Shown here in pieces: positions 1 to 11,452 of a stretch of 11,452 nt of DNA. Source of the DNA: a virus. Taxonomy: Duplodnaviria; Heunggongvirae; Uroviricota; Caudoviricetes. The notes under the pieces are model-generated. The model ran no database searches. It saw only the letters and a program-made list of their open reading frames with translations, and was not told the origin of the DNA. Location of the stretch: the IMG/VR virus record IMGVR_UViG_2778261693_000002, positions 1 to 11,452 of that record; one strand, 5' to 3'. Numbering within the stretch: position 1 is the first letter of the stretch; every line of letters begins with the position of its first letter. Made by a program: the position numbers and the translations under genes.

Positions 1-157
1 GCGTACCGGGTTGAGAAGCGGTGTAAGTGAACTGCAGTTGCCATGTTTTACGGCAGTGAGAGCAGAGATAGCGCTGATGTCCGGCGGTGCTTTTGCCGTT
101 ACGCACCACCCCGTCAGTAGCTGAACAGGAGGGACAGCTGATAGAAACAGAAGCCAC
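1..157 (-). CDS. insA: IS1 InsA (N-terminal transposase/repressor protein), 5' portion only; 3' end lies outside the window
   Basis: Minus-strand frame from GTG at 157-155 translates [52 protein letters not shown]..., matching remembered InsA; runs off the window edge. Confidence 0.75.
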
Positions 158-212
158 TGGAGCACCTCAAAAACACCATCATACACTAAATCAGTAAGTT
201 GGCAGCATTACC
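1..212 (-). mobile_element. IS1 insertion sequence, partial (left ~212 bp including terminal inverted repeat at 190-212; element continues beyond window start)
   Basis: Reverse complement of 1-212 reads GGTAATGCTGCCAACTTACTGATTTAGTGTATGATGGTGTTTTTGAGGTGCTCCAGTGGCTTCTGTTTC..., i.e. the IS1 left terminal IR followed by the insA start. Recognised from memory of IS1, not searched. Sequence changes abruptly to AT-rich DNA at 213. Confidence 0.85.
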
Positions 213-689
213 AATTTTCTCTTCTATATTACCAGTTTCAGCTGCAATTGCAGATATACCTGAATTATATAATTCTAATCTGCGTAAAATTTGCTTTGGT
301 AATAAATTTCTATCTTTCAGCCTCTCAAATGAAAAAAGGTCATTAATCCTATGAGAGATATATAACATTGAAATAACATAAGATGGTATAGCGGTTTGTT
401 GAACTGATGCGTTACCATTGTTTATATGATTAATATTTTGCTGAGCATGATCCAGAGTGTAAATGAGCGCATCAATTACTGCAATGTCATCTGAAGATGG
501 TACAAATTCCTGCATCTGATTAATTCTATCAGATAACATTTTTGGTAGTTCTATCAGATCCTCTTTATGTAAAAAAGGAAATGTGTACGGCCCAAGGTTT
601 ATAAAATCTTCCACAGGGAATACAAGACCATTAAGTGTTGTATGTAAATTATCTAGTTTCTCTTTTAATTCAGTTAGTTTTTCGTTCAT
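186..689 (-). CDS. AT-rich hypothetical protein (orphan cargo gene); frame runs into IS1 and stops 8 codons inside the IS1 terminal repeat, so the native C-terminus is probably lost
   Basis: Long ORF in low-GC DNA. ATG at 689 is preceded by AAGGA (revcomp of 698-702); the longer track start at 836 has no RBS and sits directly on the upstream terminator T-run. Last codons GNAANLLI* are encoded by IS1 sequence 186-212. No recognisable family. Confidence 0.45.
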   Translation of the reverse strand: MNEKLTELKEKLDNLHTTLNGLVFPVEDFINLGPYTFPFLHKEDLIELPKMLSDRINQMQEFVPSSDDIAVIDALIYTLDHAQQNINHINNGNASVQQTAIPSYVISMLYISHRINDLFSFERLKDRNLLPKQILRRLELYNSGISAIAAETGNIEEKIGNAANLLI

Positions 690-845
690 TAAAAAATCCT
701 TTATGACGCTATCGAACTTCCAGAGTAATCCGATAAAGATATCATAAGACAATATTTTGGTATAAACACTTATTGCGCGCGCTCGTATCCCCGCCACGCC
801 TGCCCGCTTTATGTAGTGGTTTTCATGCACCTGCATGATCTACGC

Positions 846-869
846 AAAAGCCCGCCAGTTCTGGCAGGC
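846..869 (-). terminator. Rho-independent terminator for the LexA-controlled operon (minus strand)
   Basis: Plus-strand AAAA (846-849) followed by GCCCGCCAG tt CTGGCAGGC (9-bp stem, one mismatch); on the minus strand this is a GC hairpin followed by TTTT, ~135 nt downstream of the DinI-like stop. Confidence 0.5.
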
Positions 870-1003
870 CTTAGCAAAAACGATCCTCAAACGATCATGC
901 GATCTCATGCGGCATAGACATGCACCACAGAGCTAACGCCTCGCACAGCTCGTTGTTCAACCTTGCTGACGCCAGAAGCAAGTTCAGACGCCAGCAACGT
1001 TTC

Positions 1004-1237
1004 TTAATGCAGCCAGCTGTCGTCTTCCCACACCTTCTGCATAATTTTCATCACTTGTTTTCTTTCTTCGTCCAGTTGCAGTCCGGTCAGTTCCACACCG
1101 TTAGAGCTACCTTTGCGGATACGAATTACCGTTTTGGGATACAGAGGGCGCAGATTGCGGTAAAGCTCGGATTCAAGGGCGTCCAGTGTAGACTGGCTAA
1201 CCTTCTGCTCTTTATCGATCATTATTTCAATGCGCAT
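1004..1237 (-). CDS. DinI-like DNA-damage-inducible protein
   Basis: From internal ATG at 1237 (RBS GAGGTG 5 nt upstream) the product MRIEIMIDKEQKVSQSTLDALESELYRNLRPLYPKTVIRIRKG...KIMQKVWEDDSWLH aligns by eye with E. coli DinI (MRIEVTIAK...IDALAGELSRRI...ETWESADDWF). The 101-aa track ORF from 1309 is an upstream extension. Confidence 0.8.
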   Translation of the reverse strand: MRIEIMIDKEQKVSQSTLDALESELYRNLRPLYPKTVIRIRKGSSNGVELTGLQLDEERKQVMKIMQKVWEDDSWLH

Positions 1238-1247
1238 AAAAGTCACC

Positions 1248-1436
1248 TCAGCTGATGACATCCATTGAGCGGTTGTATTCGTGGGTTCTGATTTTTGCCA
1301 TGAGTTCATCTGTCAGTTCAGAAACCCACTGCAGGGCCAGCCCCTTCTCTTCATCACTACACTCACTAGCCGCTACAAGCTTAAGAAAAAAATCAATGCG
1401 CTGGAGCTTCAAAGACTCCAAAAAATAGTCCTGCAT
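1248..1436 (-). CDS. Small hypothetical protein, first gene of the LexA-box operon (positional analogue of the phage 186 Tum antirepressor; function not recognisable)
   Basis: 62-aa ORF with strong RBS (AGGAGG, revcomp of 1441-1446) 4 nt before ATG at 1436; directly downstream of the LexA box; its 3' end carries the RBS of the DinI-like gene. Confidence 0.45.
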   Translation of the reverse strand: MQDYFLESLKLQRIDFFLKLVAASECSDEEKGLALQWVSELTDELMAKIRTHEYNRSMDVIS

Positions 1437-1476
1437 CTTTCCTCCTATGACACCAAAGCAATACTGTATATATAAC

Positions 1477-1496
1477 CACTGTTTATATTTACAGTA
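1477..1496 (-). promoter_or_regulatory. LexA (SOS) operator, CTGT-N8-ACAG, with an overlapping second half-site at 1462-1474
   Basis: cACTGTTTATATTTACAGTA at 1477-1496 matches the LexA consensus TACTGTATATATATACAGTA at 17/20; TACTGTATATATA at 1462-1474 is a perfect left half with a degenerate right half. Located ~45-60 bp upstream of ATG 1436 in an AT-rich promoter-like region. Confidence 0.7.
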
Positions 1497-1588
1497 TATA
1501 ATAATCTTACTGATGTAAAACGTTTTTTTATGCTCATCAGCCTGATATGCCTGGTATTATTAAGGGCACGAATTGTTAACCCGCGTAA

Positions 1589-4003
1589 TTAATACAGGTT
1601 TCGCCACTTATCATCTTCCTGCAAACGCTGGTTCCGATAGAAGATACGCAGGCCTGCTCCTGACGGAATACTGCCGCCGCGAAGCAGTAAATCGACCTCT
1701 TTCTCGCTGCCATCAAATCCCCTGGACTTCAGTTCATACACGAGCTGCTGTCGCTGATGATCTGTAATTCGCTGTTTGTAGTCTTTACGCCGTTTCGGTT
1801 TCACAAGGCGTAACCTTGCTGCCAGTTCCCGGCGCTCTTTTTTGCTCATACTGTGCAGGTAATCGTGCAACTCCTTGTCATCCATGCGGGTGATATCCGT
1901 TCTGGTATCTCCATCAGCTGATTTGTCTTTCCCTTGTTGGTACAAATTTTCAGCAAGGGGACAGTTATTGCCACGAGTCCAAGGGGCGCAAGCGCCCTGG
2001 TCGGCTGCCGCCTCCTGAACGTCAACGGCCTTACGAACCATTTTCCACTTCACTGCATGAGTGCAGATCTTGCCCTCTGCAATGGGTGACCAGATGCCAT
2101 AAATACGAATACCGTGATCGCCATAGGCGGTTGGCTCTTCGTTGATTTCATAAGCGGTTCTGATGAGGTGATATTTGCGGGGAACCAGTACGCCGCCCTG
2201 CTTCATGATGTAGGTGGCAAAACAACCAGCATCAGCAGCAGCCAGGATGGCATCAAGGCGCGGGTTATCCAGTACCGACGCACCTGCTTTTTTGTCACCC
2301 TGTTGCCTTGCCGCCTGACCAGCCAGCAATCGCAGTTCACGGTAAGCCTGACGCCCCGGAATGCCAAAGAAGCGGAATTGCTGAACACGATGCAGAGACG
2401 CCCAGGCATTAACGTATTCAGCGTTATCACGCAGGGATTTCCCCGTTTCCTTACTGATCTCGCCAGCCAGACCACGCCCGTCAATATTCTTACTGATATA
2501 TTTCGCAATGTAGCTTGTCGGCGTTCCTTTGCGCGGGTTTATCAGCTCAGACTTAAAGCGTGGCCCCGTGTTATTGCCCAGCTCCTCGCGGTCTTCACGG
2601 ATGGCAAACTTACGCAACAATGCAGTAATGGCGCGGCGGTCTTTTTTGCGCATGAAACACAACAGGTGCCAGTGAACTGTGCCATCATGATGCGGCTCAG
2701 CCACCCGCACGCCATACCAGCGCAACCCGGCTTTGTGCATAGCCTTACGAAATGCAGCAAACATGCCGACCAGATAATCGCTGCTTTGTCTTACTGTCGC
2801 GTTGGTCCAGGTCGGGTTTGGCCTGCCGTTATTTAGCGTGGAATGGAAACGTGACGGACAGGTGATGGTGTAGAAAACGGCGCAGTCACCGCGCATTTCC
2901 GCGATAAGCTCCAGGCCTTTAACACAGGCCATCATCTCGTTGCGGCGATGCGCCGGGTTGCTGCTGCTGGCGTTTACCACATCCTCCATGTTCAGCGTGT
3001 CGCCGTCTTCGTTCACCAGTTCATGAGAACGGAAAAACTCCAGCGACTTACGGCGCTGCTCACGTTTATGCATCACGGCTTCATAGCTGACATAGGGAGA
3101 TGCTTTTTTGCTGACCAGGCAGACAGCACGCAACTGCTCTTCCCGCCATTCGCAACGCATCTTCCATAATTTCCGATACCACCAGTCGGCGCACAGCATA
3201 CGCGCCAGCGAACCCGGAATGCGTTCATAAGGCACAGGTTTGCGGCGGTTTCTTTTCCGGCGGAGTTGCTCAAACGCAGGCGGTATGACATCCAGTCGCA
3301 GGGTTTCTGCAGCCACCTTTTCCCATGTCTTGCGGATTTCTTCTGGCTTAACATCATCGGAGGCGTACAAATCACCACAAGCGGCATCAAGACACATGCT
3401 CATATGCGCAGCGACAAGGGTAGACAGGCGTTTCACCTGATCCTGACTCATTTCAGGCAGGATCAGCAGACCGTCCAGCCCTTCATGGCTTGCCATAAAC
3501 CGAAAAGATGCAGATAGCTGGCTGTCGCGTACATGCTCCAGTCGTTCCAGACATGGCTTAATCGTCTCACGCAAATAGCGGGAATAAGCCTTTGGCCTGC
3601 CCAGGCTGCTGAAGTATTCAATACGTTGCATCAGCGGCTTGCTGATATGGGAAGGCTGGGCGTTGACGTCAGCCAGAATGACCATGTCTGGATTAAAACG
3701 CTGCTGCTCATGCGCCATCTTTGCCCGGCTAATGAGCTTATCCTGCTCCATTTCGCGTTGGACAGGATCACGGGATTCATTAAAGAAATAACGCTCCCAG
3801 ACCTGATCACTTAGTGCCTCGCGGCGCAGTTGTTCCTGCTCGTTATCGGTAGCGTACAAAGTGATCAGGTTTGAAAGCGCAGAAACCGGCGCAACTTCCA
3901 CCGGGTCCAGATAAGGGTTAATGGCCTTTTTCGGGCTGTTCCATGAGAATGCTGCGGCGACCTCGTTAAAGCCGCTGCAGTTGTTCATATCAGCATGGCT
4001 CAT
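1589..4003 (-). CDS. Replication initiation endonuclease, phage P2 gpA family (HUH rolling-circle initiator)
   Basis: 804-aa ORF; HUH motif VHWHLLCF and paired-tyrosine active-site motif YIAKYISK; ATG 4003 overlaps the upstream Dam stop (ATGA); RBS GGAG 8 nt upstream. Confidence 0.9.
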
Positions 4004-4857
4004 GCACGCACTCCGTACACGGCAGAACTATCCACGCCACGCGAAGGATCAAATCCCATCCAACAGCGCGGCCCGGAAACAGCGATGATTTCTGTTGCAG
4101 ATTTACTCTCACCAGCTGCTACACCGATGCTGCGTTTTGCCTTGATGTAGTGGTGAGTAAAATTGCGATACAGCGAACGGATCAGGGATGTATCACTGTT
4201 AGAAACAATGACCGGATGTCCTTCTGATGACCGATGTTCAAGAACGGATGCCAGGTGATACTGGTCATCTTCAGTGAAACCATCAGTGTGATAGCCGGAA
4301 AACGTACCGTCATACGGCGGATCGCAATACACCACATCCCCCACCTGCAGCATCGCCAGCGTTTCATCAAAGCTTGCGCAGATAAACGTTGCACGCTGGG
4401 CCTTTTCTGCAAATGCGCGAATTTCTTTTTCAGGGAAATACGGATTTTTATAATTACCGTAGGGAATGTTGAAATGCCCGCTCTTGTTATAGCGACATAA
4501 ACCACGGTAACCGTGACGATTGAGATACAGGAAATATACCGCTTTCATGAAATCAGTAATTTCAGTTGAGTAATTAAACTCCTGCCTTATGTTGTAATAA
4601 GCCACCTCCCTGTTTGCGATCTCAAATAAAACTCTGGCGCGAGATATAAACGATTCACAATCAGCAGCAACCTTTTTATAGAGGTTGATTAAATCAGGAT
4701 TAATATCCGCAACAAGATAGCTGGGGTAATCCGTCTCCATCATCACAGCACAGGAACCCGCGAAAGGTTCAACCAGTCGCGGGCCAGCAGGAAGATGTTT
4801 TTTCAGTTCGGACATAATGGCAGTTTTATTACCCGCCCATTTCAGGATGGTGCTCAT
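4000..4857 (-). CDS. dam: DNA adenine methyltransferase (Dam-like, N6-adenine, GATC class)
   Basis: 285-aa ORF with KWAGNK, FAGSCAV (AdoMet-binding region) and catalytic DPPY motif ([10 protein letters not shown]); RBS GGAGGTG; start overlaps the stop of the upstream gene (ATGA). Confidence 0.85.
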
Positions 4858-5081
4858 ACAGCACCTCCGTTGTAATGTTTACCTTTCAGCTCTGCGATTT
4901 CCTGACAGGTAATGCAAAGCTGCACTCCCGGAATGGCGCGGCGGCGCGCTGGCGGAATTGGCGCTTCACACTCAATGCAAAGCACGCGAGACACGCCAGG
5001 TGTTTTGGCACGGGCAGCACGGATGTGGCGCTGGCGTTCTTCTTCAACGCGCTGCTGTACGAGATCCATTGCATCAGCCAT
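4854..5081 (-). CDS. TraR/DksA-family C4 zinc-finger protein
   Basis: 75 aa; CIECEAPIPPARRRAIPGVQLCITCQ...KGKHY closely parallels F-plasmid TraR (LCEACGNPIPEARRKIFPGVTLCVECQ...RKHY) as remembered; RBS AGGAGA; ATG overlaps the preceding stop (TAATG). Confidence 0.8.
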   Translation of the reverse strand: MADAMDLVQQRVEEERQRHIRAARAKTPGVSRVLCIECEAPIPPARRRAIPGVQLCITCQEIAELKGKHYNGGAV

Positions 5082-5314
5082 TAGTGGATCTCCTGCGCTT
5101 CGTTCTGGATTGCTTCAGCGGTCACACGCAGCAGTTCTGCTGCTTCAACGTGGTTTAGCTGGCGGGATGAGATATGACACGCCAGGCTATCAAGGCGAGC
5201 TGCCATTGCTTCAGCCCTTGCCCGGCGTTCTTCCAGACGAGCCTCTGTCAGTAAAAGATTAAGACCTGCATCATCCGGTCCGGTTTTGGTCGTGAGGGTT
5301 TCAATATTACGCAT
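5081..5314 (-). CDS. Hypothetical phage early protein
   Basis: ORF in the early operon; the track start at 5320 is TTG, and the ATG at 5314 has RBS AGGAGA 7 nt upstream; stop overlaps the next start codon. Confidence 0.45.
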   Translation of the reverse strand: MRNIETLTTKTGPDDAGLNLLLTEARLEERRARAEAMAARLDSLACHISSRQLNHVEAAELLRVTAEAIQNEAQEIH

Positions 5315-5381
5315 AAGCAATTCTCCTGAATTTAGATAAAGGGATGCCCGGCGGGTTTACGCCATTAATTTCATTAGTTGG

Positions 5382-5723
5382 TTAATTCGGCATGGTTAGC
5401 CGTCTGGGAAATAAGCTCACCACTGCACGAAAATGATTCATTGCTTTAATCAACTCCCGCTTTTCGTCAGTGGTCAGCTCATTAATGCTGATGCTATGAC
5501 GTTCAGCTGGAATTTTTGCCATAAAGAATATGGCAGCCAGGGCTCGTTTATTTTGTTCGTTATTAATATCCCGTGGATCACGCATATCTTTAATAAACCG
5601 CTCAAGCTCTGACTCAATATTCAGGCCAAATACTTTCGCCCTTAACTCCGCAATGTGATTAAGTCCATTCAGGCGTTCACCGGGGCTTAATGGAACAGTC
5701 GCCGCAGCGCCTTCAATAGCCAT
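5382..5723 (-). CDS. Hypothetical phage early protein
   Basis: 113-aa ORF, ATG at 5723 preceded by GGGGGAA; co-oriented and tightly packed with neighbours; no recognisable motif. Confidence 0.5.
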   Translation of the reverse strand: MAIEGAAATVPLSPGERLNGLNHIAELRAKVFGLNIESELERFIKDMRDPRDINNEQNKRALAAIFFMAKIPAERHSISINELTTDEKRELIKAMNHFRAVVSLFPRRLTMPN

Positions 5724-5887
5724 TTGTTCCCCCGTTTTTTCGTAGATAGTTCTGCCAGCAATTCATCTTGTGAACGGCACGGATGCCAGCGTTTACCATC
5801 CTCCCCCATAATCCAGCCGTGACCATAATGCATTGCCGGGCTTTGTTTAACCAGCAGCGATGCAAATGATGGTTCTTTCGTCAACAT
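5687..5887 (-). CDS. Small hypothetical protein (position of 186 fil/dhr-type small early genes)
   Basis: Track ORF starts at GTG 5917 inside the CII-like gene; the ATG at 5887 with RBS GAGGTG begins after the CII-like stop. 66 aa from ATG. Low information. Confidence 0.35.
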   Translation of the reverse strand: MLTKEPSFASLLVKQSPAMHYGHGWIMGEDGKRWHPCRSQDELLAELSTKKRGNKWLLKALRRLFH

Positions 5888-5894
5888 AAGCACC

Positions 5895-6404
5895 TCACAG
5901 CAAACCAAATGAAGCACCGAGGCCAGTCACGGTATCAACTGCACTCGCCATCGCAGGATTAGCCTGTAAACGGGCCTGCAATGAAACAGCCGCCAGCGCC
6001 ATCAGTCGTGTTACAGAGTTAATGCTGCTGATAGCATCACGACGACCGGCGCAGGTTTTTACATCGCCAGACACCGCACCTGCAGCAACACGCCCGATCT
6101 CTGCGGTTGCACTCATGACGTAATGTGGCAGTTTCTCTTTTGCCACCTCATTAATCGGTACACATGGCAGACAATGAATCTGTGCCAGAAAACCATCTAT
6201 CAGCGTTGAGTCTTCTGTCAGATCGGTAAGCAGCCAGATTTCTGGCGCATTGAGCTGATGCGGTTGATCTGGGTTGAGTTTGTTTCGCAGTGTCTGAACA
6301 TTCATTCCTGCACGTTCTGCCAGCTTCGCCATATTGTGACGTAGTGCAAAAGCTCTACAGGCTTCATCAAAATACGGATGTTTGGAAATCTTGTAATCAA
6401 ACAT
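5895..6404 (-). CDS. CII-like transcriptional regulator (HTH), second gene of the lytic operon
   Basis: 169-aa ORF, the same length I recall for phage 186 CII and in the same position (directly after apl); HTH-like segment MAKLAERAGMNVQTLRNKL; RBS GGGGG 4 nt before ATG 6404. Confidence 0.55.
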   Translation of the reverse strand: MFDYKISKHPYFDEACRAFALRHNMAKLAERAGMNVQTLRNKLNPDQPHQLNAPEIWLLTDLTEDSTLIDGFLAQIHCLPCVPINEVAKEKLPHYVMSATAEIGRVAAGAVSGDVKTCAGRRDAISSINSVTRLMALAAVSLQARLQANPAMASAVDTVTGLGASFGLL

Positions 6405-6436
6405 GCTGCCCCCTTAGAAAGTTCCCATAATTGAAC

Positions 6437-6679
6437 TTACTTACCAACAATGACGCGGAAGTTGGAATGTCCGAGGGATTCACGGACCTGATCAGTTTTG
6501 TACATCAGATAACGCAGACTTACGCGGCCTTTGTTTTTTTCTTTCTTGACCATGTACTTAGCAAGTTGACCATGGTGAATTTTTTGGTAAACAGAGCCGC
6601 GGGAAATGCCCTCCCACTCTGCGAACTCTGCAGGTGTTGCCATCTCTTTTGGTACACGAATTGAAATATCAGTACTCAT
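6437..6679 (-). CDS. Apl/Cox-type excisionase and switch regulator
   Basis: 80-aa first gene of the minus-strand operon, convergent-promoter arrangement opposite cI as in 186/P2; HTH-like EFAEWEGISRGSVYQKIHHGQL. Confidence 0.65.
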   Translation of the reverse strand: MSTDISIRVPKEMATPAEFAEWEGISRGSVYQKIHHGQLAKYMVKKEKNKGRVSLRYLMYKTDQVRESLGHSNFRVIVGK

Positions 6680-6758
6680 AGTGCAGTATCTCTTACTTTG
6701 TGTGCGTGTTAGTTCGTTTTAGCCCGTCTCTTAAACTCTCACATCAAGAGACAAGAAA

Positions 6759-6787
6759 ACATTACGATCTTGATTCAAGATTGTCAA
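6759..6787 (-). promoter_or_regulatory. Candidate lytic promoter (pR-like) with palindromic operator in the spacer
   Basis: Minus strand reads TTGACA (revcomp of 6782-6787), 17-nt spacer, TAATGT (revcomp of 6759-6764); the spacer contains the perfect palindrome ATCTTGATTCAAGAT (6767-6781); a further TCAAGAG half-site lies at 6745-6751. Confidence 0.4.
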
Positions 6788-6800
6788 ATGGAGATTACCA

Positions 6801-7433
6801 ATGTTAAACATCAGAATGGGTTCCGATACGGGAGGTAAAGCAGCTATTGAGAGGCTGCTTGCGGCTTATGGATTCACAACTAAGCAGGCATTAAGTGAGC
6901 ACCTGAATGTCTCAAAAAGCACTATGGCAAACAGAGTGTTACGTGACAGCTTTCCTGCTGACTGGATAATTCAGTGCGCACTAGAAACCGGTGTTTCGTT
7001 GCTTTGGTTAGCTACAGGACAGGGAAGCATGAAAGCAGGATCTGAGACTGAAAAAAGATCTCACAATGAGAACAAACAAGCAATTAAACCGTTATCTAAA
7101 CTCATAACTCCATCTATTCCTAAAGGAACCTTGGAGAATGGACAACTCAGTATTGATGAAGAGATTTTCCTAGACCACAGCATATTACCTGCAAATTATG
7201 AAGAATCGATGTTCTTAGAAACCCCTACTGATTGTTATCTCATCGATAAATCAGTTAAACAAGTCAGCAATGGATTCTGGCTTATCAATATTGATGGAAT
7301 GATTATTATTGCAAAAATTATGCGGATTCCCGGCAATAAGATTGTAGTAAATCAAGATGAAGCGTCTTTCGAGTGCTCTGCTGATGATGTGGAAGTTATT
7401 GGGCGTGCAGTCAAAGTAATAAAGAGTATCTAA
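6801..7433 (+). CDS. CI-type immunity repressor (N-terminal HTH, C-terminal domain)
   Basis: 210-aa ORF immediately upstream of and co-transcribed with int (stop 7431-7433, int ATG 7436); HTH-like TTKQALSEHLNVSKSTMANRV; RBS GGAG; divergent from apl across the switch region. Confidence 0.7.
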   Translation: MLNIRMGSDTGGKAAIERLLAAYGFTTKQALSEHLNVSKSTMANRVLRDSFPADWIIQCALETGVSLLWLATGQGSMKAGSETEKRSHNENKQAIKPLSKLITPSIPKGTLENGQLSIDEEIFLDHSILPANYEESMFLETPTDCYLIDKSVKQVSNGFWLINIDGMIIIAKIMRIPGNKIVVNQDEASFECSADDVEVIGRAVKVIKSI

Positions 7434-7435
7434 AC

Positions 7436-8452
7436 ATGACTGTCAGAAAACAGCCAAACGGCAAATGGTTGTGTGAGTGCTATCCCAATGGACGCAATGG
7501 CAAGCGCGTGCGTAAGCAATTTGCTACGAAAGGAGAAGCCATTGCTTTTGAAAGCTTCACAATGGAAGAAGTGAATAAAAAACCGTGGCTAGGTGAAAAG
7601 GATGATCGGCGACGCCTATCAGAATTAATTGAGCTTTGGTATTCCCTGTATGGTCAGACACTCGCAGACCCCAGGCGCCTCATGGCGAAACTTAGAATTA
7701 TCTGTAATGGTCTAGGCGACCCCATCGCCTCAGAACTGACAGCCGGTGACTTTACGAAATACCGCGAAGCACGGTTAAAAGGCGACGTTCGTAACGAAGA
7801 CGGCACACTAATGTCGCCAGTAAAACCACGCACGGTGAATCTTGAGCAACGTAACCTATCATCGGTTTTCGGCACATTGAAAAAACTAGGCCACTGGTCA
7901 GCACCAAATCCTCTCGCCGGGCTGCCAACATTTAAAATCGCTGAGGGGGAACTGGCGTTCCTGACCTCGGAAGAAATTAAACGTCTGCTAGATGCCTGCG
8001 CTGATTCTCAAAACCCCAGTCTGCTTTTGATTGCAAAAATATGCCTGGCCACCGGCGCACGCTGGAGTGAAGCCGAAAACCTGCAGGGCCATCAGTTATC
8101 TAAATACCGCATCACTTATACCAAGACGAAGGGCAAGAAAAACCGCACCGTGCCGATATCTCAAGATCTGTATGACGAACTCCCCAAGAACAGAGGGAAG
8201 CTATTCACTCCGTGCAGAAAAGCCTTTGAACGGGCAGTAAAGCGAGCTGGCATCGAGCTGCCAGAGGGCCAATGCACTCACGTGCTACGTCATACATTCG
8301 CCAGTCATTTTATGATGAATGGCGGAAACATACTGGTGCTACGCGATATTCTGGGCCATGCCGATATAAAAATGACGATGATTTACGCCCACTTTTCGCC
8401 CGATCACCTTGAAGATGCGGTTACTAAAAACCCTTTATGCAACTTAAGATAA
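7436..8452 (+). CDS. int: Tyrosine site-specific integrase (P2/186 type)
   Basis: 338-aa ORF; catalytic-domain signature ARWSE...HVLRHTFASHF...GHADIKMTMIYAHF (R, H-x-x-R, Y); size and position typical of P2-like int. Confidence 0.9.
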   Translation: MTVRKQPNGKWLCECYPNGRNGKRVRKQFATKGEAIAFESFTMEEVNKKPWLGEKDDRRRLSELIELWYSLYGQTLADPRRLMAKLRIICNGLGDPIASELTAGDFTKYREARLKGDVRNEDGTLMSPVKPRTVNLEQRNLSSVFGTLKKLGHWSAPNPLAGLPTFKIAEGELAFLTSEEIKRLLDACADSQNPSLLLIAKICLATGARWSEAENLQGHQLSKYRITYTKTKGKKNRTVPISQDLYDELPKNRGKLFTPCRKAFERAVKRAGIELPEGQCTHVLRHTFASHFMMNGGNILVLRDILGHADIKMTMIYAHFSPDHLEDAVTKNPLCNLR

Positions 8453-8765
8453 AGTAACTTATGAAAATAAACTCAAATTATTTACAAATATAATATTCAG
8501 CAGGTTATTTATTCTTATTTAACTCTTCAGACTGAGATTAGGTTTTATTTATAGAATAAGATAATTTCATATCACAAAAAACCTGTAAGCCCTCATCTTT
8601 GTTGTATAAAAACATAAAAGATGCCATATTCAAAAAAGTAGAAAAGCATTGCAATGCAACATTAAAAATAAGCCAATAAAAAACAGTCATTAGAAAATGA
8701 AAAAACCAAAAACATTTTTTATCAAAGCTTCAGTCTGACTACTAGTTTGACTCTGCAATTAACTA

Positions 8766-8797
8766 TCAAGATGATCAATATTTATTGATCATCTTGA
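8766..8797. repeat. Perfect 15-bp inverted repeat (TCAAGATGATCAATA tt TATTGATCATCTTGA) containing two GATC sites
   Basis: Exact reverse-complement arms read directly from the sequence; lies 33-64 nt downstream of the deaminase-fusion stop; no flanking U-tract on either strand. Confidence 0.6.
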
Positions 8798-8829
8798 AGC
8801 TGCCCTCAGGAAAGATGAGTATAATATTT

Positions 8830-10566
8830 CTACTCAAGAAGATATTCTAACTCATCTTTTATCGGGATAACTTGCTCATAAAGTCGGTGATATGACTTCC
8901 CAATTGCGCCTCTGAATTGTATTAACTTTGGTGGCTTGTTACCTATATTAATAATATGGTCTTGGGCTATACCTGGGTAGGGATCAATAAATACAATTTC
9001 AGATATACCTAACTGATAAGCTTTTTTCGCACACAGCTCACAGGGACTGGCAGTTGTATATAACCTTCCCCCCTGAACGCCAATACCACCATATTTTGCA
9101 AGTTGTAAAAAAGCGTTTTCCTCAGCATGTAATGCACGTGTATGAACTTGATTACCTTTTTTATCTTTATCAAGATCATTATGTATATCTTTAAAACAAT
9201 AAGATAAGTTCCTGCCTCTATAAATATCACCAGTTTTATCTATCGCCCTAAAATTTAAGAGTTTCTCATTAGCCTTAATTCTGAAAGAACTATTATTTCT
9301 CTCATAATGACTGTACACTTTTTCATCAAAGTCGTTCATTAGGCCATCTAGCGATCTCATAGAGCAAGGAATCTGACCGTTGGCAACATCATTCCAACCT
9401 ACTGATTTTATTGAATTGTCACCATCAGTTACTACAGCTCCCACCTGTCTAGATATACAACCAGAGTTTAATTTTACCGTATACGCAACTTGCATAACCC
9501 TTTCCATTGCAGTAGGTGTTATCAGACCAGGATGCTTCATCAGTGCGATGTACCACGCTAATTGTGCTTTTAAAATATTATCATTATCAAATTCATTTTT
9601 TGGGTTAAAAATGTGTATATCTGATAGTTCAATACATTTAGTTACATTTGGATTAGTGAGATGTTTGTAAGAGTTATCACCTTTACCTGACTCTACAGAA
9701 TCTATTTCCTCTATCTGCTTTTCAGAAAACTTATGTAGTTTCCGCAAATAGTTTGTTCGATGTTCATCTGGGGCATTTATTGACATTAAATGAAATGCAG
9801 AATATCTATCCTTAAAAAATTTTGCTTCATATGGATTTCTAATAGCATCTATGACAATTAATGCGTTATCTCTTTTGCTTTTTCTTATTAATTTAATAAC
9901 CCTATTAATAGTTTCCGGCAAATGAAAAACAGATTTAGGTATAAACTCTTTATCTTCAAAATCGACTTCAATACGCCCACGGCGTCTAATTGACTTACCT
10001 GCTAACTGATAGACTGAAACATATAAATTTGAGTTTATCGCATTTAGTTCAGCTTTGAATTCCTTAGTAAATTTTCTAACTAACCTCAAAATTGATATAA
10101 ATTTATTAATCGTTTTTTCATTAAGCTTCAATTCACTATTATGATCAAGCAAATTCTCAATTACATTTTTAAATCTTGTTAAAATTAGATTATCTGAGAA
10201 TACACCAAAAGTTAATACATTATCTAAATGCTCTTTACTGATAGATTTATTAGATGACAGAATGAATTCAGAAGCTTCTTCAACTGTTAACATCAAAAGA
10301 TACGCTGAGATTAGGTCACTCACCTTAATTGAGTAAAAATTTTCCCAGTGATTTTCTGCGAATTTTTTAACTATATTATAACGATGGACATCCAATCCCT
10401 TGTAAAAACCCTGTAATTTACTTACATCAGGGAAGACTGTTTTTTCGTTTTCAAGAATATTAGCTGTTGTTGTGCAACCAGAACCAGTTCGACCTGTCAA
10501 ACCGACTAAAATAAACTGCCCATTTTCAAGGAAAAGCTCACTAACGAATTTTTTTTCTTTCATCAC
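8830..10566 (-). CDS. P-loop-kinase-like + dCMP/cytidine-deaminase fusion protein (AvcD/DCD-like candidate anti-phage deoxynucleotide deaminase)
   Basis: 578-aa ORF in low-GC DNA. N-terminal Walker-A-like VGLTGRTGSGCTT (10468-10503, Lys replaced by Cys). C-terminal deaminase signatures RQVGAVV, zinc ligands HAE (9121-9129) and PCELC (9031-9045). Start is GTG 10566 or ATG 10563. Family assignment from memory, no search. Confidence 0.75.
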   Translation of the reverse strand: MMKEKKFVSELFLENGQFILVGLTGRTGSGCTTTANILENEKTVFPDVSKLQGFYKGLDVHRYNIVKKFAENHWENFYSIKVSDLISAYLLMLTVEEASEFILSSNKSISKEHLDNVLTFGVFSDNLILTRFKNVIENLLDHNSELKLNEKTINKFISILRLVRKFTKEFKAELNAINSNLYVSVYQLAGKSIRRRGRIEVDFEDKEFIPKSVFHLPETINRVIKLIRKSKRDNALIVIDAIRNPYEAKFFKDRYSAFHLMSINAPDEHRTNYLRKLHKFSEKQIEEIDSVESGKGDNSYKHLTNPNVTKCIELSDIHIFNPKNEFDNDNILKAQLAWYIALMKHPGLITPTAMERVMQVAYTVKLNSGCISRQVGAVVTDGDNSIKSVGWNDVANGQIPCSMRSLDGLMNDFDEKVYSHYERNNSSFRIKANEKLLNFRAIDKTGDIYRGRNLSYCFKDIHNDLDKDKKGNQVHTRALHAEENAFLQLAKYGGIGVQGGRLYTTASPCELCAKKAYQLGISEIVFIDPYPGIAQDHIINIGNKPPKLIQFRGAIGKSYHRLYEQVIPIKDELEYLLE

Positions 10567-10758
10567 GTCCCACTTATGAATGTAAGAATATTCAACATAT
10601 TAATTATAATTTATTAACTCATTTTGTTCTAGATACTTGATGTAATGGCGGCATTTTGGCGACGGAGCATTAAAAACGCGTAAGACGAGCAAATACAACA
10701 AAACACTAACACACTGTTTTTAAATATAAATAGCTGTTTTTACTATACTAAAAATGGT

Positions 10759-10803
10759 ATGTAGGAATTTCGGACGCGGGTTCAACTCCCGCCAGCTCCA
10801 CCA
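10759..10803 (+). other. ssrA: Duplicated 3' end of the tmRNA gene ssrA (att core copy; tRNA-like T-arm, acceptor strand and CCA), not a complete gene
   Basis: ATGTAGGAATTTCGGACGCGGGTTCAACTCCCGCCAGCTCCACCA: T-stem GCGGG/CCCGC with T-loop TTCAACT, 3' acceptor strand and CCA; matches the remembered E. coli ssrA 3' end. The upstream ~300 nt is AT-rich and unlike tmRNA. Confidence 0.7.
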
Positions 10804-10987: not shown

Positions 10988-11434
10988 TTGGCAAGAACGA
11001 CACGCCCCCTGACCAACACAGAAGTACTGCGCGCTAAAGCGTTAGAAAAGGATCTAACGTTGCATGATGGCGATGGTCTTTTTCTACTCGTTAAAACGAA
11101 CGGTAAGAAGTTATGGCGTTTCCGTTATCAACGTCCGGCAACAAAGCAGCGGACAATGATGGGGCTAGGTACCTTCCCAGCTCTTTCACTTGCTGACGCC
11201 CGACGGTTAAGAGCGGATTACCTTTCCTTGTTAGCCAACGGAATTGACCCGCAAATTCAAGCTGAAATTGCAGAGGAACAGCAGCAAATCGCACAGGACA
11301 GTATTTTTACAACGGTCGCCGCTAAGGAAGGTGCGAATAAGCAGGTCATTTCTTCCCAAGCTGACTCGTTGATTAAAATTTCGCGGATCTGGGCCGATTT
11401 TTTTCCCGCAAACACATCGAATCAGCCTATTTAG
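10988..11434 (+). pseudogene. P4-type integrase, N-terminal fragment (~110 aa of arm-binding domain, then divergent tail and premature stop)
   Basis: TTG start with strong RBS AAGGAG; MARTTRPLTNTEVLRAKALEKDLTLHDGDGLFLLVKTNGKKLWRFRYQRPATKQRTMMGLGTFPALSLADARRLRADYLSLLANGIDP fits the N-terminus of P4/CP4-57-family integrases (~400 aa full length) as remembered; ORF ends at 148 aa with no catalytic domain. Confidence 0.55.
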
Positions 11435-11452
11435 GCTATTTTTTCCACCATT

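Follow-up and report, generated by a model that had tools for sequence, protein, structure and literature searches.

A probable simple IS1 insertion in the cos-proximal cargo gene of a P2-like prophage at ssrA, with late genes beyond the other end of the element

The insertion sequence IS1 is 768 bp long, produces its InsAB' transposase by a −1 programmed frameshift, prefers AT-rich targets, generates a direct target-site duplication of 8-9 bp, and promotes adjacent deletions. Among the temperate phages considered here, Fels-2 integrates at ssrA. The cos-proximal region between gpA and gpQ of P2-like phages is a hotspot for cargo and defence genes (the tin/old locus in P2) (Rousset et al. 2022, PMC9122126). 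In relatives of the prophage described below, the same slot is taken up by CoiA-like, DprA-like, HNH or other genes, and IS1 is found in it in the closed genomes 33-6, 58-3, KL53, and ZH177 as well. Two of these prophages are degraded: 33-6 lacks the portal-to-tail-fibre region, a loss associated with IS3, and KL53 lacks the scaffold-to-gpD region; neither deletion adjoins IS1.

The DNA analysed here, referred to as the window (11,452 bp), is the entire contig NLHF01000087.1 of the draft assembly GCA_002226055.1. Its positions 213-10803 constitute the early half of a P2-like prophage which is ≈ 94% identical to RE2010 (Salmonella) and Cartapus (Escherichia). The features, in window coordinates, are as follows.

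1..212, minus strand: left 212 bp of IS1, reverse-complemented, 100% identical to annotated IS1A/IS1B
212..190, minus strand: terminal inverted repeat IRL of IS1, 23 bp, GGTAATGCTGCCAACTTACTGAT, read from the sequence
157-155, minus strand: start codon GTG of insA, whose first 52 codons reach base 2, base 1 being the contig end
186..689, minus strand: truncated cargo ORF of 167 aa (WP_244565659.1), with its stop inside IS1
782..800, minus strand: cos cohesive-end sequence, 19 nt, GGCGTGGCGGGGATACGAG, matching at every base the cos annotated as putative in Salmonella phage SEN8
1004..1237, minus strand: DinI-like (186 Tum-like) gene, the final gene of the backbone ahead of cos
between gpA and the DinI-like gene: ORF of 62 aa
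1589..4003, minus strand: gpA replication endonuclease, 804 aa, full length
between CI and gpA: CII, Fil, DUF5347, DUF2732, TraR, and Dam
6801-7433, plus strand: CI repressor
7436-8452, plus strand: integrase
8830-10566, minus strand: anti-phage dCTP deaminase
10733..10803, plus strand: prophage/chromosome junction with a 3' fragment of ssrA (tmRNA), 34.9 bits and E 2e-12 with the tmRNA model
11326..11452, plus strand: terminal 127 bp of ISKpn26 (IS5-like) with inverted repeat GGAAGGTGCGAATAAG, at the other contig end

The early module (int, CI, CII, Fil, Dam, gpA, and the DinI/Tum-like gene) is complete, every gene being of full length and of the size seen in relatives. As befits an incomplete gene, the ssrA piece does not reach the gathering score, and ARAGORN detected no full tmRNA gene in the window. 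The dCTP deaminase (577-578 aa) is a cargo gene between the integrase and the ssrA-type junction in a region of 33% GC; with the NCBIfam model NF041025 (cut-off 400) it scores 424 bits, and with the PADLOC dCTPase model it gives E 1.4e-145. Its slot holds other genes in relatives; in Cartapus, for example, one for a RES-domain protein. Beyond the ssrA fragment, the stretch 10988-11452 (plus strand) holds the first ≈ 113 codons of a P4-type integrase gene (Arm-DNA-bind_3) together with the ISKpn26 end that cuts this gene at a CTAA target. The integrase piece points to another integrative element lying in tandem at ssrA.

IS1 was recognized by imperfect terminal repeats of ≈ 23 bp (IRL GGTGATGCTGCCAACTTACTGAT, IRR GGTAATGACTCCAACTTATTGAT), by an insA gene beginning ≈ 55 bp inside IRL whose product carries a CxxC...CxxC zinc finger at its N-terminus, and by the 8-9-bp duplication. 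The 52-codon translation of insA contains the motifs CPSC and CSHC and is encoded by DNA that is 100% identical to annotated IS1 transposase genes. Both terminal repeats are present, a variant of IRL at 212..190 of the window and IRR at 153-175 of a second contig of the same assembly, NLHF01000030.1 (see below). The boundary with the prophage lies exactly at 212/213, as the match begins at position 213 in all 13 complete genomes with an uninterrupted flank. A preliminary description, made from the window only, had taken 1-212 to be the reverse complement of the IS1 left end, abutting prophage DNA at 213, and comparison with IS1A/IS1B bears this out; given the terminal repeat, the insA start, the complete identity, and the exact boundary, the IS1 is real.

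Near-full matches to 1-212 occur in 4960 of 5426 complete E. coli genomes, with a median of ≈ 10 and up to 68 matches per genome. The contig terminates inside such multicopy elements on both sides, in IS1 on one and in ISKpn26 on the other, and both ends are thus repeat-induced breaks of a short-read assembly: the edge at IS1 is there because the assembler was unable to cross the repeat. No late gene lies within the window, as the preliminary description correctly noted; the reason is that the whole contig stops inside IS1, and the absence consequently carries no biological information. For scans of this kind it follows that a contig stopping inside an insertion sequence marks an assembly break and is no evidence of a deletion.

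The cos site, likewise reported as not visible, is in fact within the window. It was located by short-word alignment to the cos junction of phage 186 and then confirmed against SEN8, while a search with the P2/186 cos consensus allowing ≤ 3 mismatches detected no site in the window or in the uninterrupted prophage of CP61_Sichuan. From 813 to 775 the minus strand reads CATAAAGCGGGCA, then GGCGTGGCGGGGATACGAG, then CGCGCGC. The 19-mer and the following 8 bases equal positions 1-27 of SEN8, of which 1-19 are annotated as 'putative cos site', and the SEN8 record stops exactly at window position 801. Across the predicted cut site, 25 of 26 bases match the cos junction of 186, and within the 19 positions of the cos sequence itself four differ from those of 186. 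The conserved backbone lies to the right of cos (801 upwards). On the left, a few more bases, up to ≈ 773-775, are still shared among relatives, with variable cargo below them, and homology with other P2-like phages ends at 766-776. Because the homology ends just past cos, where the variable cargo starts, the cargo slot lies between cos and portal, as in SEN8. The site had been expected to follow the accessory locus; it is located instead between the DinI-like gene and the cargo gene, 570 bp from IS1, which fixes the anatomy for this phage group: cos precedes the cargo gene rather than following it. The side of cos on which cargo resides differs among P2-like lineages, with orf97 of 186 between tum and cos, and the cargo of SEN8 and the present prophage between cos and portal.

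The other end of the IS1 insertion was traced by a protein search with the missing C-terminal part of the cargo protein, followed by listing of the cluster members. The first 175 bp of contig NLHF01000030.1 (49,229 bp) of assembly GCA_002226055.1 are the right end of IS1, terminating in ...ATCAATAAGTTGGAGTCATTACC with 0 mismatches to a reference IS1B; then come GAGAAAATT and AAAACTATAAATGAA..., which is the exact continuation of the cargo gene. On the minus (gene) strand of the window, the left junction reads ...GAAGAGAAAATT, followed across the boundary by GGTAATGCTGCC. The two copies of the duplication are placed as follows.

Window 213..221, minus strand: copy 1 of the target-site duplication, GAGAAAATT, compared with contig NLHF01000030.1 and with the empty site
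NLHF01000030.1, bases 176-184: copy 2, GAGAAAATT, directly after the IS1 right end

The 9-bp sequence is thus a direct repeat on both flanks of IS1, within the 8-9 bp that the element generates, and the empty site in CP61_Sichuan has a single copy of GAGAAAATT; the probability of meeting this 9-mer by chance at one fixed position is ≈ 2e-5. The two IS1 pieces share the same orientation. When window and NLHF01000030.1 are joined after removal of IS1 and one repeat copy, they align with the CP61_Sichuan prophage in one block of 12,195 bp that includes the junction (96.75% identity, 4 gaps). Both original flanks hence exist, and the reconstruction is collinear with an uninterrupted prophage. The left junction recurs unchanged in a Logan assembly that was built independently from run SRR3987974; the complete E. 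coli genomes of the collection searched do not contain this exact IS1 junction. In GC content, both the N-terminal part of the cargo gene (31%) and the 100 bp surrounding the site (36%) are below the backbone (≈ 49-56%), and such an AT-rich target fits the known preference of IS1.

Past the cargo gene, NLHF01000030.1 carries the genes for portal, large terminase, scaffold, major capsid, and small terminase, and further on L, X, holin, lysozyme, LysA/B/C, R, S, V, W, and the start of J. The contig was read over its first 11.1 kb; the tail genes after J, ogr, and the second attachment site would lie beyond. Within this stretch the head, lysis, and baseplate set Q P O N M L X Y K LysABC R S V W J is present (J in part, as it runs past the stretch), and every fully read late gene has the length found in relatives. 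At 49 kb the contig is long enough to hold the tail genes I H G FI FII E T U D and ogr. Assuming that the unread tail region is typical of relatives, the prophage is estimated at ≈ 34.6 kb including IS1, which falls inside the range of related phage records (33-39 kb).

Taken together, the locus very probably represents a simple insertion of a single IS1, with 9-bp duplication, into the cos-proximal cargo gene, nothing adjacent having been deleted. By ordinary transposition, IS1 would have entered an AT-rich site at codon 159/160 of a 463-aa cargo gene, located between cos and portal of a prophage of the Fels-2/SEN8/RE2010 type at ssrA. The event duplicated the 9 bp GAGAAAATT and truncated the cargo protein to 159 native and 8 IS1-encoded residues. 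The early region, cos, and the late genes as far as read (portal to J) are all there at full length. That IS1 is inserted within the prophage, as the preliminary description stated, is documented by both junctions and the duplication. Its further proposal, namely that IS1 possibly marks a deletion of the late region and that the prophage may be cryptic, is refuted by the late genes on NLHF01000030.1 past the other IS1 end; the arrangement it had itself set against a deletion, a matching 9-bp GAGAAAATT and late genes (here portal to J) beyond that end, is the one observed. The cargo gene is accessory and non-essential, and since it is transcribed towards the late operon, essential genes would not be expected to suffer polar effects; the prophage is presumably still functional.

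Three other readings have to be considered in this context. An adjacent deletion, by which IS1 would have removed cos and the late genes and left a cryptic remnant, accords with the established behaviour of the element, with a window devoid of late genes, and with the degraded state of some related prophages (33-6 and KL53), albeit through deletions that are not beside IS1. The cos site at 782-800, on the other hand, is retained, and in the same assembly the second IS1 junction shows the same 9-bp repeat, the exact continuation of the gene, and then the late genes. An adjacent deletion would have destroyed this original second junction, so that its preservation argues against such an event, which is considered highly improbable. 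Even less credence can be given to the idea that the junction is an assembly chimera and that no IS1 was inserted at all. The junction does coincide with the edge of a contig assembled from short reads; yet the same left junction was recovered in the independent Logan assembly of SRR3987974, and the complementary right junction with its perfect 9-bp duplication is of the kind that real transposition generates.

Less easily dismissed, albeit unlikely, is an originally simple insertion whose halves were later separated or inverted by recombination between IS1 copies, or an insertion of a composite transposon flanked by IS1. Neither contig crosses IS1, the same two junctions would remain in either case, and the copy numbers of IS1 in E. 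coli given above offer many partners for recombination. Against this, no positive evidence for a rearrangement or a composite element was obtained, one element accounts for the orientation and for both junctions, insertions of a lone IS1 are known to be far commoner than composite insertions or rearrangements, and the closed genome of ESDR8 shows the simple case. Since IS1 bases 213-593 (the middle 381 bp) are present in neither contig, we infer the linkage of the two contigs through one IS1; presumably exactly one 768-bp copy joins NLHF01000087.1 and NLHF01000030.1. The simple insertion remains the preferred reading, and in terms of known biology it would be a textbook case of IS1 knocking out one non-essential prophage cargo gene, of little biological weight.

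The intact cargo gene, as found in CP61_Sichuan and E. coli HS, codes for a hypothetical protein of 463 aa (WP_001583354.1). In uninterrupted relatives it converges on portal, and 26 bp separate the stop codons of the two genes. The truncated ORF of the window consists of 159 native codons (689..213), the product of which is identical to the N-terminus of WP_001583354.1 from CP61_Sichuan, and of 8 IS1-encoded codons (GNAANLLI). The remaining 304 codons are on NLHF01000030.1 (gene part 176-1099), where the downstream piece is annotated from the first ATG past the break as an ORF of 286 aa (WP_244565650.1). Two other contigs with the 286-aa ORF were inspected for the same insertion: one has the empty site and a frameshift, the other is a short contig.

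Homologues of the cargo protein number in the thousands in Enterobacterales; its PHROG, 34659, is a family annotated without function. Long helices are predicted for its N-terminal and central parts (AlphaFold model), hydrophobic segments span residues ≈ 276-299 and 311-338, and a strongly conserved block extends over ≈ 328-410. The product may be described as a putative, uncharacterized coiled-coil membrane protein. Searches against Pfam, PADLOC, NCBIfam, and PDB sequences returned sub-threshold coiled-coil noise only. The AlphaFold model of a 463-aa homologue is all-helical (pLDDT 71.6, pTM 0.32), and Foldseek yielded no match with E < 0.1 to it in the PDB. As neither sequence nor fold searches gave anything significant, no function is claimed for the protein. 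The best Foldseek match in the PDB is the executioner four-helix bundle of MLKL (6zz1_B; probability 0.99, target-normalised TM 0.63, rmsd 3.0 over 128 columns); another top match is the coiled-coil domain of a plant CC-NLR, the top E-values being 0.16-0.9 with a model of moderate quality. The resemblance to MLKL and CC-NLR may serve as a lead and is not a finding.

Many E. coli, Salmonella, and Klebsiella draft assemblies have the cargo gene annotated as two partial pieces. To regard all of these copies as hits by insertion sequences was rejected: the two halves are separated by gaps, and their break points, spread over residues ≈ 107-160 in a stretch of ≈ 30% GC, would look more like drop-out of coverage, although repeated insertions or selection against the gene may also contribute. 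Other damaged copies are frameshifted, and one is truncated to 376 aa. It could be speculated that the gene encodes a costly, membrane-acting abortive-infection effector of the P2 cos-proximal hotspot which is repeatedly inactivated in lysogens; two independent IS1 insertions (in the window strain and in ESDR8), the frameshifted and truncated copies, and the weak resemblance to MLKL point in this direction, although the proposal must be regarded as doubtful. If it applied, the IS1 insertion would be a selected loss of function and not a neutral accident.

With regard to known systems, the IS1 of the window resembles IS1A/IS1B of E. coli in its terminal repeats, the insA start, the 9-bp duplication, and the AT-rich target; over the 212 + 175 bp seen it is 100% identical to these elements and displays no unusual feature. 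Relative to the IS1 reference, its IRL has A instead of G at position 4, a variant common to many other copies. As described for the hotspot of P2-like phages (PMC9122126), the cargo resides in the variable gpA-gpQ slot adjoining cos; its product matches no PADLOC, Pfam, or NCBIfam family. In contrast to 186, where orf97 is on the gpA/tum side, the cargo is on the portal side of cos, as in SEN8. The prophage as a whole is closest to SEN8, RE2010, and Fels-2 (Felsduovirus) and to Cartapus, as seen from its early region (≈ 94% to RE2010 and Cartapus) and from the cos 19-mer, which equals that of SEN8, and it shares with Fels-2 the link to ssrA, a 3' fragment of which marks its right junction, but it differs from all of these in both variable slots, with the 463-aa gene in one and the dCTP deaminase beside int in the other. 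The closest parallel to the insertion itself is the prophage of ESDR8 (NZ_CM169472.1), which shares an IS1B in the 463-aa gene, in the same orientation to the gene and with a target duplication; over the left 212 bp the two elements differ by a single mismatch, at position 4. In ESDR8 the site is an independent one, ≈ 140 bp deeper in the gene, with the duplication TCTTTAAG/CTCTTTAAG, and this prophage also carries an IS21-family element in gpA. Likewise, in this closed genome the genes from portal to lysis are intact past IS1.
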